Shown here: positions 42,965 to 45,275 of the stretch, in pieces
Numbering within the stretch: position 1 is the first letter of the stretch
How the letters are laid out: every line of letters starts with the position of its first letter
Assembly (NCBI RefSeq): GCF_016026235.1
Contig: NZ_CP065613.1
Direction: 5' to 3' (one strand)
From: Escherichia coli
Lineage (GTDB): Bacteria > Pseudomonadota > Gammaproteobacteria > Enterobacterales > Enterobacteriaceae
Length of the DNA: 64,000 bases
Translations under genes and position numbers: made by a program
The notes under the pieces: generated by a model
Database searches by the model: none
What the model was told of the DNA's origin: nothing
What the model saw: the letters and a program-made list of their open reading frames with translations, nothing else

Positions 42965-45275
42965 GTTATTCTCTGCATTCAGAAAAAATAAAATCTGGGA
43001 TTTCAACGGCGGCATCCATCCACCGGAGATGAAAACCCAGTCCAACGGTACCCCCCTGCGCCAGGTACCCCTGGCGCAGCGTTTTGTTATTCCACTGAAA
43101 CAGCATATTGGCGCTGAAGGTGAGTTGTGCGTTAGCGTCGGCGATAAAGTATTGCGCGGCCAGCCGCTTACCCGTGGTCGCGGCAAAATGCTGCCTGTTC
43201 ACGCGCCCACCTCGGGTACCGTTACGGCTATTGCGCCCCACTCTACGGCTCATCCTTCAGCTTTAGCTGAATTAAGCGTGATTATTGATGCCGATGGTGA
43301 AGACTGCTGGATCCCACGAGACGGCTGGGCCGATTATCGCTCTCGCCGTCGCGAAGAGTTAATCGAGCGCATTCATCAGTTTGGTGTTGCCGGGCTGGGC
43401 GGTGCGGGATTCCCGACAGGCGTTAAATTGCAGGGCGGCGGAGATAAGATTGAGACGTTGATTATCAACGCTGCTGAGTGCGAGCCGTACATTACCGCCG
43501 ATGACCGTTTAATGCAGGATTGCGCGGCTCAGGTCGTAGAGGGTATTCGCATTCTTGCGCATATTCTGCAGCCACGCGAAATTCTTATCGGCATTGAAGA
43601 TAACAAACCGCAGGCGATTTCCATGCTGCGCGCGGTGCTGGCGGACTCTCACGATATTTCTCTACGGGTGATTCCAACCAAATATCCTTCTGGCGGTGCT
43701 AAACAATTAACCTACATTCTGACCGGGAAGCAGGTTCCACATGGCGGGCGTTCATCCGATATCGGCGTATTAATGCAAAACGTCGGCACTGCTTATGCAG
43801 TGAAACGTGCCGTTATTGATGGCGAGCCGATTACCGAGCGTGTCGTAACCCTGACTGGCGAAGCAATCGCTCGCCCGGGCAACGTCTGGGCACGGCTGGG
43901 GACGCCAGTGCGTCATTTATTGAATGACGCCGGCTTCTGCCCCTCTGCCGATCAAATGGTGATTATGGGCGGCCCGCTAATGGGCTTTACCTTGCCATGG
44001 CTGGATGTCCCGGTCGTAAAGATTACCAACTGTCTGTTGGCTCCCTCTGCCAATGAACTTGGCGAACCACAGGAAGAACAAAGCTGCATCCGGTGTAGCG
44101 CCTGTGCTGACGCCTGCCCTGCGGATCTTTTGCCGCAACAGTTGTACTGGTTCAGCAAAGGTCAGCAACACGATAAAGCTACCACGCATAACATTGCCGA
44201 CTGCATTGAATGTGGGGCTTGCGCGTGGGTTTGCCCGAGCAATATTCCCCTAGTGCAATATTTCCGTCAGGAAAAAGCTGAAATTGCGGCTATTCGTCAG
44301 GAAGAAAAGCGCGCCGCAGAAGCCAAAGCGCGTTTCGAAGCGCGCCAGGCTCGTCTGGAGCGCGAAAAAGCGGCTCGCCTTGAACGACATAAGAGCGCAG
44401 CCGTTCAACCTGCAGCCAAAGATAAAGATGCGATTGCTGCCGCTCTGGCGCGGGTGAAAGAGAAACAGGCCCAGGCTACACAGCCTATTGTGATTAAAGC
44501 GGGCGAACGCCCGGATAACAGTGCAATTATTGCAGTACGGGAAGCCCGTAAAGCGCAAGCCAGAGCGAAACAGGCAGAACTGCAGCAAACTAACGACGCA
44601 GCAACCGTTACTGATCCACGTAAAACTGCCGTTGAAGCCGCTATTGCCCGTGCCAAAGCACGCAAGCTGGAACAGCAACAGGCTAATGCGGAACCAGAAG
44701 AACAGGTCGATCCGCGCAAAGCCGCCGTCGAAGCCGCTATTGCCCGTGCCAAAGCACGCAAGCTGGAACAGCAACAAGCTAATGCGGAACCAGAACAACA
44801 GGTCGATCCGCGCAAAGCCGCCGTCGAAGCAGCTATCGCCCGCGCCAAAGCGCGCAAGCTGGAACAGCAACAGGCTAACGCAGAGCCAGAACAACAGGTC
44901 GATCCGCGCAAAGCCGCCGTCGAAGCCGCTATTGCCCGTGCCAAAGCGCGCAAGCTGGAACAGCAACAGGCTAATGCGGAACCAGAAGAACAGGTCGATC
45001 CGCGCAAAGCCGCCGTCGAAGCCGCTATTACCCGTGCCAAAGCGCGCAAACTGGAACAGCAACAGGCTAATGCGGAGCCAGAAGAACAGGTTGATCCGCG
45101 CAAAGCTGCCGTCGAAGCGGCTATTGCACGCGCCAAAGCACGCAAGCTGGAACAGCAACAGGCTAATGCAGAACCAGAAGAACAGGTTGATCCGCGCAAA
45201 GCGGCAGTTGCCGCGGCTATTGCCCGCGTTCAGGCCAAAAAAGCCGTCCAGCAAAAGGTTGTAAACGAGGACTAA
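42957..45275 (+). CDS. rsxC: Rnf/Rsx complex subunit C, with expanded C-terminal repeat region
   Basis: 772-aa ORF; NADH-binding and 4Fe-4S ferredoxin motifs ([24 protein letters not shown]) followed by about 6.4 tandem 32-aa repeats ([32 protein letters not shown]). Confidence 0.9.
44613..45227 (+). repeat. tandem 96-bp coding repeats within rsxC (about 6.4 copies)
   Basis: Repeat units start at about 44613, 44709, 44805, 44901, 44997, 45093 and 45189 (partial); units are near-identical with a few synonymous or conservative changes. Confidence 0.85.

Follow-up and report, generated by a model that had tools for sequence, protein, structure and literature searches.

The question raised by this locus is what the 96-bp tandem repeat at the 3′ end of rsxC in an Escherichia coli sequence represents, and what the repeated peptide may contribute to the protein. 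The sequence analysed, here called the window, is a 64-kb stretch of DNA in which the rsxC (rnfC/ydgN) coding sequence occupies positions 42957..45275 of the + strand (772 aa plus stop). Judged by its sequence, the product is assigned as the cytoplasmic NAD(P)H/FMN/2×[4Fe–4S] subunit of the Rsx (Rnf-type) complex. Pfam domains were detected at aa 14–115 (RnfC_N), 139–283 (Complex1_51K), 296–344 (SLBB) and 373–430 (Fer4), with scores of 4e-32 for PF13375 and 4.6e-48 for PF01512 and further matches to PF10531 and the Fer4 families, the whole spanning aa 14–432. The RnfC_N barrel-sandwich, the Nuo51-type FMN/NADH-binding region, the SLBB domain and the two 4Fe–4S cluster motifs of an RsxC/RnfC protein are all present, and the NCBIfam RsxC equivalog NF003454 scored 868.6 bits (cutoff 345), next to 594.6 bits for TIGR01945. 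The neighbouring ORFs of the window encode RsxB (42386–42964), RsxD (45276–46334) and RsxG (46338–46958), as in the rsx operon, and RefSeq annotation of orthologous loci gives the order rsxABCDGE-nth. The K-12 protein (b1629) is named “SoxR [2Fe-2S] reducing system protein RsxC” in RefSeq; in line with this product name, it has a putative role in SoxR [2Fe–2S] reduction with NAD(P)H.

The repeat resides in a C-terminal tail of 339 residues, including 92 Ala, 42 Glu, 41 Gln, 34 Lys and 34 Arg. The proximal, non-repeated part of the tail (aa 434–552; 44256..44612, + strand) contains a long predicted helix as well as two degenerate segments related to the repeat module, encoded on the same strand at 44421–44468 (16 aa) and 44514–44573 (20 aa); AF2 places the helices of this part at aa 432–483, 489–506 and 522–547. 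Comparison with solved RnfC proteins, i.e. 8ahx_C (496 aa), 7zc6_C (435 aa) and 9eri_C (443 aa), revealed a homologous core (E 5e-121 to 4e-83). These align only to aa 14–498 of the window protein and none has the repeat tail, leaving aa 499–772 without a solved counterpart. Likewise, Pfam, NCBIfam and PDB sequence searches returned no model or structure for aa 571–772.

Tandem Repeats Finder (TRF) located the array at 44613..45226, with a period of 96, 6.4 copies, 92% matches, 0% indels and a score of 997. This agrees with the extent of 44613–45227 given in a preliminary description of the locus, and the array is the sole tandem repeat scoring at least 80 within the window. Rfam gave no match at the gathering threshold anywhere in the window. 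Unit decomposition of the TRF array gave six full units of 96 bp (32 aa) on the + strand, starting at aa 553 and together covering 44613..45188: unit 1 at 44613–44708, unit 2 at 44709–44804, unit 3 at 44805–44900, unit 4 at 44901–44996, unit 5 at 44997–45092 and unit 6 at 45093–45188. In each, an 18-aa basic module, DPRK(A/T)AVEAAI(A/T)RAKARK, precedes an acidic linker of 14 aa ending in (E/Q)QV. A degenerate terminal unit (28 aa plus stop; 45189..45275, + strand) closes the array and stays last in all alleles and genera examined; the rsxC stop codon directly adjoins the rsxD ATG at 45276. The full units differ pairwise by 3–13 nt, no two of them being identical, and comparison among them gave a pS of 0.29 and a pN of 0.016 (pN/pS 0.06). 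The helical character ascribed earlier to the 32-aa segment is reproduced by AF2, which predicts one helix of 20–22 residues per full unit, with low-confidence coils of 10–12 residues in between.

The array is identical with ms11, a published MLVA locus of E. coli and Shigella whose polymorphism is already known and routinely typed. The forward primer GAAACAGGCCCAGGCTACAC (44462..44481, + strand) and the reverse primer CTGGCGCTGGTTATGGGTAT (45304..45323, − strand, inside the start of rsxD) each have a single exact match in the window with 0 mismatches; for the forward primer, none is expected by chance. The primers and the repeat size of 96 bp are tabulated together with a report of 6 alleles (PMC8215070, tables 1–2), and the same primer pair is assigned to rsxC elsewhere (PMC11773471, table 1), in line with the strain-typing polymorphism anticipated in the preliminary description. 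The panel traces to Gorge et al. 2008 (PMC2268344), and typing use dates from that year; ms11 also features in an AEM 2019 study (doi 10.1128/AEM.02812-18), both being cited here via papers that reproduce their primers and tables. A single-tube E. coli MLVA scheme reuses the locus as primer pair ECMLV2. The in-silico amplicon is 862 bp for the window versus 766 bp for K-12, and over eleven alleles the products were 286, 382, 670, 766, 862, 868 and 964 bp. The window does not differ in kind from ms11 and represents its 862-bp allele. The MLVA papers treat ms11 as a length marker alone, without unit sequences, selection or the protein module. The repeats of tolA and ftsK lie in Ala/Lys/Glu/Gln-rich linker regions of envelope and division proteins, and their copy number changes without loss of the protein. 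As CNV004 (tolA) and CNV001 (ftsK), they are further coding VNTRs of E. coli MLVA with multiple-of-three units, like rsxC, albeit in different genes and with shorter units according to the published table (PMC11773471, table 1).

Copy-number frequencies were obtained from about 100 rows in two evenly spaced samples of 5,424 complete genomes, three rows being unresolved as their BLAST pieces were not joined. About 58% of the sampled genomes carry 5 units, 18% carry 4, 15% carry 6, 4% carry 7 and 2% carry 0–1, and a protein with 11 units exists (P0001, 937 aa). Expansion and contraction between strains, as proposed earlier, is thus borne out by counts of 0, 1, 4, 5, 6, 7 and 11, all in frame. 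The unit length is 99 bp in B2-type alleles and 96 bp otherwise. Six-unit alleles are common and were found in all sampled O157:H7 genomes and in O145. Assembly collapse may account for some of the extremes with 0 or 1 unit. A phase-variable contingency locus was considered and rejected, as the units are multiples of three and all eleven alleles examined remain in frame with the same stop codon.

How units are gained and lost can be read from individual alleles. The closest genome, FDAARGOS_943 (99.9% identity over window positions 1–20000), has 5 units; those corresponding to units 1, 2, 5 and 6 and the terminal unit in window numbering equal the units of the window. At the variable sites 27, 33 and 39, its unit 3 has the bases of window unit 3, and at sites 75, 78, 81 and 88 those of window unit 4. 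This chimera is interpreted as the signature of one in-register deletion by a single crossover within a 35-bp identical stretch. In JCC-EE7, the flanks are those of K-12 (0 mismatches over 1,301 bp) and K-12 unit 3 is exactly duplicated; the 0-unit allele of strain 1105 is chimeric, combining the first unit with the terminal one. As read from their sequences, FDAARGOS_943 and JCC-EE7 directly demonstrate the step of whole-unit loss or gain. Whole 32-aa units would be added or removed when units misalign in register, either by homologous exchange or by slippage during replication; the frame and the terminal unit survive because 96 bp is a multiple of three and the units share long identical stretches. 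The locus is, very probably, the known in-frame rsxC minisatellite ms11, here in a 6-unit (772-aa) allele, and the analysis found no evidence contradicting this VNTR reading.

The variable array encodes a module that is itself nearly invariant. At least eight enterobacterial genera share the same 18-aa module, whereas the acidic linkers are genus-specific. Between E. coli, Salmonella and Klebsiella the module shows a pS of 0.50–0.58 and a pN of 0–0.004; the corresponding values for the RsxC core are 0.62–0.73 and 0.045–0.061. The sequence comparisons indicate that the module is under very strong purifying selection, with linker sequence and copy number free to vary. The module carries a charge of +4 and the proline-containing linkers −3 to −4. 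In a search of 1.84 billion representative proteins, related modules were confined to RnfC/RsxC tails; those of distant gammaproteobacteria contain module-like repeats with a helix starting D[PDK][KR]. Taken together, the basic helices span 18–21 residues. A related case is the RsxC of Erwinia amylovora, whose strains carry 0 to 5 copies of a 40-aa tandem repeat that has been proposed as a VNTR marker (Sci Rep 2023, PMC10587187). It also begins at aa 553 and its opening module is 17/18 identical to that of E. coli, but the unit has 40 rather than 32 aa and the linker, AAQAAPAAADKAAPVQQPAAEQ, is unrelated. While the Erwinia authors speculate on solenoid or toroid repeats (PMC10587187), AF2 predicts isolated helices with low-confidence linkers for the window protein. 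The model predicts a helix–coil periodicity across the tail, with tail confidence of only 40–80. In the literature searched, the module motif is mentioned only as the typing repeat in Erwinia, and no experiment or paper on RnfC/RsxC tail function was found; a Haemophilus influenzae paper that names rnfC together with repeats deals with a 41-bp direct repeat flanking no such tail but marking an insertion site, and is unrelated.

The array extends a C-terminal tail outside the catalytic RnfC core, made of short basic helices on flexible acidic linkers. The tail is not essential for catalysis, because natural 0- and 1-unit alleles exist and the solved RnfC proteins have no tail. The basic helices may serve as docking modules that bind an acidic partner or surface multivalently. 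Copy number may then alter valency or reach, while Rsx activity would not depend on it. We tentatively consider the module a possible undescribed multivalent docking motif (e.g. for flavodoxin/ferredoxin, SoxR or an Rnf component), its 0–11 copies tuning avidity or reach. A membrane-binding amphipathic helix is disfavoured by a hydrophobic moment of 0.15 and a mean hydrophobicity of −0.38 (Eisenberg), the apolar residues being mostly Ala.

The tail repeat could also be neutral filler or a low-complexity spacer, conserved by concerted evolution or mutational bias and not by binding. The range from 0 to 11 copies in natural isolates would fit such a spacer, as would the lack of a tail in the solved RnfC of Azotobacter, Clostridium and Acetobacterium; the tail also lies outside any Pfam model and has no phenotype in the literature searched. 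Still, the module is held tighter than the catalytic core at the nonsynonymous level despite ample synonymous change between genera. The units of one array are old, as judged from their synonymous divergence, yet encode near-identical peptides, so that homogenisation alone is an insufficient explanation. Moreover, the linkers diverge but retain charge and proline content, and the module-like repeats persist in RnfC tails of distant gammaproteobacteria. Neutral filler therefore appears unlikely.

For the reading as an ms11 allele, it has to be considered whether the sixth unit was added by the assembler, the strain truly carrying the common 5-unit allele. A 96-bp unit repeated six times is difficult for short reads, and many database RsxC proteins are “partial”, ending inside the array at contig ends. 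The concern about short-read copy number voiced in the preliminary description is hence justified in general. In addition, the exact rsxC DNA of the window was found in 0 of 5,426 complete genomes, the best match being 99.0%. For the window allele, however, the concern does not hold, as it is independently reproduced: a separate NCBI assembly agrees at every position over 3,119 bp, and the exact 772-aa protein occurs on 12 contigs, two of them larger than 1 Mb. An artefact would duplicate a unit, whereas all six units differ, by 3 nt or more. Without both window unit 3 and window unit 4, the chimera in FDAARGOS_943 could not have formed, and alleles of six units are frequent among long-read genomes, EDL933 being an example. 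An assembly origin of the sixth unit is accordingly highly improbable.

Long open reading frames overlap the array in other frames, as was noted earlier for the antisense strand. They comprise a 376-aa ORF (44250..45380, −), a 264-aa ORF confined to the repeat (44405..45199, −), which would encode a low-complexity Cys/Ser/Ala peptide, and a 247-aa ORF in the rsxC +1 frame (44521..45264, +). Two database entries with frameshifts, P0020 and P0037, continue in the latter frame. That either antisense ORF is a real overlapping gene is suggested by their length and by the pN/pS of 0.08 in the 264-aa frame. Third positions of this frame fall on those of rsxC, so its ratio follows that of the sense frame and cannot discriminate; sharing of wobble positions is expected to produce such a low value artefactually. 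Conversely, pN/pS among units is 1.96 in the 376-aa frame and 2.79 in the +1 frame, i.e. these frames are clearly unconstrained. Only the lack of stop codons in the repeat keeps the 376-aa frame open. The ORFs coincide in extent with the array, their length tracks copy number and their peptides are of low complexity. The same frames are open over the rsxC arrays of Salmonella and Klebsiella despite different linkers, which points to a compositional effect of GCN-rich codons. RefSeq annotates only rsxC at the locus. An antisense gene is thus extremely improbable, and the ORFs are regarded as spurious by-products of the ms11 array.

It was also proposed that the window carries one unit more than K-12. 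In length this is correct: K-12 rsxC (MG1655, b1629; 740 aa, 2223 bp) has five full units plus the terminal unit, and the difference to the 772-aa protein is exactly 96 bp or 32 aa. As a statement on descent, i.e. that the window allele arose from the K-12 allele by one recent unit duplication, it is virtually excluded despite the exact 96-bp gap and the single-unit gain in the K-12 background of JCC-EE7, since unit-by-unit comparison refutes it: there is no identical pair among the window units, unit 4 alone has a K-12 counterpart of identical sequence (K-12 unit 2), units 5 and 6 as well as the terminal unit are those of O145 RM9872, no unit of the other examined alleles comes closer than 4–6 nt to unit 3, and the flanks differ from K-12 at 16 of 1,162 positions. 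The mutual differences of the window units and the one K-12-identical unit imply that several events separate the two alleles.

As a polymorphism, the ms11 allele is of little consequence, being a routine typing marker in a common 6-unit form. Its practical effects concern genome data. Short-read assemblies often break in the rsxC array and variant callers report spurious rsxC/rnfC indels. PGAP calls natural in-frame 0- and 1-unit alleles pseudogenes, and gene finders can output long false ORFs on the other frames of the array. The scientific interest lies in a tail that is naturally deletable and yet contains a helix invariant across genera. Should the helix act as a docking motif, this would point towards a so far undescribed partner, or a further level of regulation, of the gammaproteobacterial Rsx/Rnf complex.

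Tandem Repeats Finder returned one array at 44613–45226 (period 96, 6.4 copies, 92% matches, no indels, score 997), which is the sole tandem repeat with a score of at least 80 in the 64-kb window. It occupies the 3′ third of the rsxC ORF (42957–45275, plus strand), which encodes 772 aa, is flanked by rsxB and rsxD–rsxG in the order of annotated E. coli genomes, and scores 868.6 bits against the NCBIfam RsxC equivalog model. RnfC_N, Nuo51-type FMN-binding, SLBB and two 4Fe–4S domains account for the first 432 residues; Pfam reports nothing past residue 432, and the NCBIfam model ends at residue 570. 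Cut at each DPRK, the protein resolves into six complete 32-aa units, the first at residue 553, followed by a degenerate 28-aa terminal unit and a stop codon that abuts the rsxD start. Two degenerate relatives of the repeated motif lie directly upstream of the array (aa 489–504 and 520–539). Position, unit size, copy number and ORF length thus agree with the preliminary description, as does the length it gives for K-12 RsxC: MG1655 rsxC (b1629), at 2223 bp, encodes 740 aa and has five complete units plus the terminal unit. Rfam showed no family at gathering score anywhere in window 1–64000.

The suggestion that such an array is a strain-typing polymorphism is true, and the locus already has a name. 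Primer pair ECMLV2 is listed as “ms11 (rsxC)” (PMC11773471, Table 1), and the same primers define ms11, with a tandem repeat size of 96 bp, in a panel credited to Gorge et al., J Clin Microbiol 2008 (PMC8215070). Six ms11 alleles with amplicons of 718–958 bp and a Simpson index of 0.68 were found in 80 isolates (PMC8215070), and the locus was also used in PMC12175529. Both primers match the window once and without mismatch (forward, 44462–44481, plus strand; reverse, 45304–45323, minus strand); they bracket the array and predict a product of 862 bp, against 766 bp for K-12. The array is therefore a published, routinely used VNTR marker. A parallel case is Erwinia amylovora RsxC, in which 0–5 copies of a 40-aa repeat, also starting at residue 553, were proposed as a VNTR marker (PMC10587187).

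Although the window allele is one unit longer than that of K-12 (772 vs 740 aa), as had been proposed, it is not K-12 plus an extra copy, an origin ruled out by comparison unit by unit. The six units differ pairwise at 3–13 positions. K-12 unit 2 recurs exactly as unit 4; O145 RM9872 shares units 5, 6 and the terminal unit without a difference; and units 1–3 find their nearest counterparts in other strains. The two arrays lie one unit apart in length and several events apart in history.

How units are gained and lost is illustrated by FDAARGOS_943, the genome closest to the window (99.9% over window 1–20000), whose array flanks show 3 differences in about 1,220 positions. Its 5-unit allele reproduces window units 1, 2, 5 and 6 exactly as its own units 1, 2, 4 and 5, along with the terminal unit, and its unit 3 agrees with window unit 3 at the 5′ variable sites (27, 33, 39) and with window unit 4 at the 3′ variable sites (75, 78, 81, 88). 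The allele is exactly the product of one in-register exchange, removing 96 bp, within a 35-bp stretch common to units 3 and 4. Going the other way, a duplication in the 5-unit allele would yield either the chimeric unit again or a hybrid involving unit 2, and neither matches the window, so that six units is the more likely ancestral state in this lineage. A gain is found in JCC-EE7 (locus L010, NZ_CP101922.1; 4.61 Mb), whose rsxC flanks match K-12 without mismatch over 1,301 bp. In its array the K-12 units, with a single substitution in unit 1, are joined by a further exact copy of K-12 unit 3, for an encoded length of 772 aa; this is a clean single-unit gain, apparently a recent one in a K-12-type background. 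In strain 1105 the 0-unit allele is chimeric, with unit 1 at its head (DPRKT) and the terminal unit as its body. All three alleles support the slipped-strand or recombination mechanism put forward at the outset, in which whole 96-bp units would be added or removed by exchange or slippage between units with the frame kept; they do not separate RecA-dependent exchange from slippage.

The same comparison bears on whether an assembler created the sixth unit. Identical rsxC DNA occurs in none of the 5,426 complete E. coli genomes of the collection (best match 99.0%). Still, such an artefact is very unlikely, because all window units are distinct and the FDAARGOS_943 chimera needs both units 3 and 4. 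In NCBI the exact 772-aa protein (e.g. EFK6691178.1) is found on 12 contigs, of which two exceed 1 Mb, and 3,119 bp of the independent assembly GCA_021505815.1, spanning rsxC, match the window without a difference; the allele has already been sequenced repeatedly. A general caution regarding short-read assembly is justified: many “partial” E. coli RsxC entries of 559–629 aa in the same protein cluster, each on up to 51 contigs, stop within the array at contig ends, indicating that short-read assemblies often break there. Among the database proteins, P0020 and P0037 are frameshifted and read through some 200 residues of the array in the +1 frame, P0002 carries a 28-aa tandem duplication within the catalytic core, and P0004 a duplicated pre-repeat segment. 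These four are either sequencing or assembly errors or rare real variants.

All but two of the 5,426 complete E. coli genomes carry rsxC (5,424). Units were counted from the match span per genome in two evenly spaced samples of the match ranking (40 and 60 rows), ambiguous span classes being checked on fetched loci. About 58 sampled genomes carry five units, 18 four, 15 six and 4 seven; one and zero units occur once each, and three rows gave no count. Six units, found also in O157:H7 (EDL933 and others), O145 RM9872 and strain 536, is on these shares a common minority allele. The protein collection includes a 937-aa RsxC with 11 units (P0001). In some phylogroup-B2-type alleles an extra Gln codon produces 99-bp units, and such units occur in VTB96937v (locus L005), 536 (locus L009) and P0001; unit length is thus itself slightly polymorphic, shifting ms11 amplicons 3–6 bp from multiples of 96. 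Reading frame, terminal unit and stop are kept in every allele examined (in-silico amplicons of 286–964 bp). RefSeq/PGAP labels the 0-unit (strain 1105, L003) and 1-unit (strain S42, L004) genes pseudogenes (“incomplete; missing C-terminus”). In each the deletion keeps the frame and leaves terminal unit and stop codon intact; the label is probably an artefact of length-based annotation, provided that the arrays were not collapsed during assembly.

A separate observation concerns the uidA–uidR intergenic region, where an IS4-like, ISEc60-family element of 1,316 bp (31090–32405) with 30-nt terminal inverted repeats and a 413-aa transposase ORF (31121–32362, minus strand) lies upstream of uidA, at the expected position of its promoter; it may affect beta-glucuronidase expression. 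Among the matches listed for window 20000–42900, only RMDEC332 and RMDEC364 cover the full stretch, the other listed genomes lacking about 1.3 kb. FDAARGOS_943 has the same insertion (NZ_CP065615.1 1349000–1366000, L016, and 1094000–1114000, L017), but there uidA–ISEc60 and ISEc60–uidR lie about 255 kb from each other and point in opposite directions; ompG/ycjW adjoins one copy of the element and ycjV/pgmB the other. An inversion between two ISEc60 copies seems to account for this; the window retains the uninverted order uidA–ISEc60–uidR. In FDAARGOS_943, uidC has an IS1 inside.

The long spurious antisense ORFs attributed to the repeats are present (376 and 264 aa), together with a 247-aa ORF in the +1 frame. 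Compared across the six units, the rsxC frame has a pN/pS of 0.06, the 376-aa frame 1.96 and the +1 frame 2.79, the last two being clearly unconstrained. The value of 0.08 for the 264-aa frame does not discriminate, as this frame and rsxC have their wobble positions in common; low pN/pS alone would falsely suggest a conserved antisense gene at 44613–45188. All three frames are also open over the Salmonella and Klebsiella arrays despite different linkers; their openness is therefore compositional, a by-product of GCN-rich, stop-poor codons.

Each unit consists of an 18-aa basic module (net +4) and a 14-aa acidic linker (net −4). Differences between window units are overwhelmingly synonymous (pS 0.29, pN 0.016); the units are therefore old paralogues held to one peptide rather than fresh copies. 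The same 18 residues form the predominant RsxC module in Escherichia, Salmonella, Citrobacter, Klebsiella, Raoultella, Kosakonia, Leclercia and Cronobacter, and the Erwinia module differs at one position (PMC10587187). Linkers vary by genus in sequence and in length (10–22 aa) but are acidic throughout and mostly contain proline. When E. coli, Salmonella and Klebsiella are compared with one another, pS is 0.50–0.58 and pN 0–0.004 for the module, against 0.62–0.73 and 0.045–0.061 for the catalytic core; the module helix is thus held more tightly than the enzyme core. Queried with one unit and the terminal unit, HMMER matched only 91 of 1.84 billion representative proteins. All long matches inspected are RnfC/RsxC of other gammaproteobacteria with 5–10 tail repeats of the form D[PDK][KR], 16 further residues and a variable acidic linker; the short matches inspected are fragments of the same locus. 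An AlphaFold2 model (21-sequence alignment) has a confident core and, per full unit, one helix of 20–22 residues (pLDDT about 60–80), separated by coils of 10–12 residues with pLDDT below 50. The solved RnfC structures 8ahx, 7zc6 and 9eri align to residues 14–498 only.

The tail is dispensable for catalysis, as many Rnf complexes have none and some natural alleles retain only 0 or 1 unit. Read most simply, it would be a flexible, multivalent set of basic docking helices, free to drift in number; a specific docking role for the helix is put forward tentatively, below even odds. Neutral filler is rated only slightly less probable, and a membrane-anchoring amphipathic helix is disfavoured by the low hydrophobic moment (0.15). 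A search of the accessible literature on the tail motif returned nothing beyond its use in typing. The polymorphism is real, in frame and changes by whole units.
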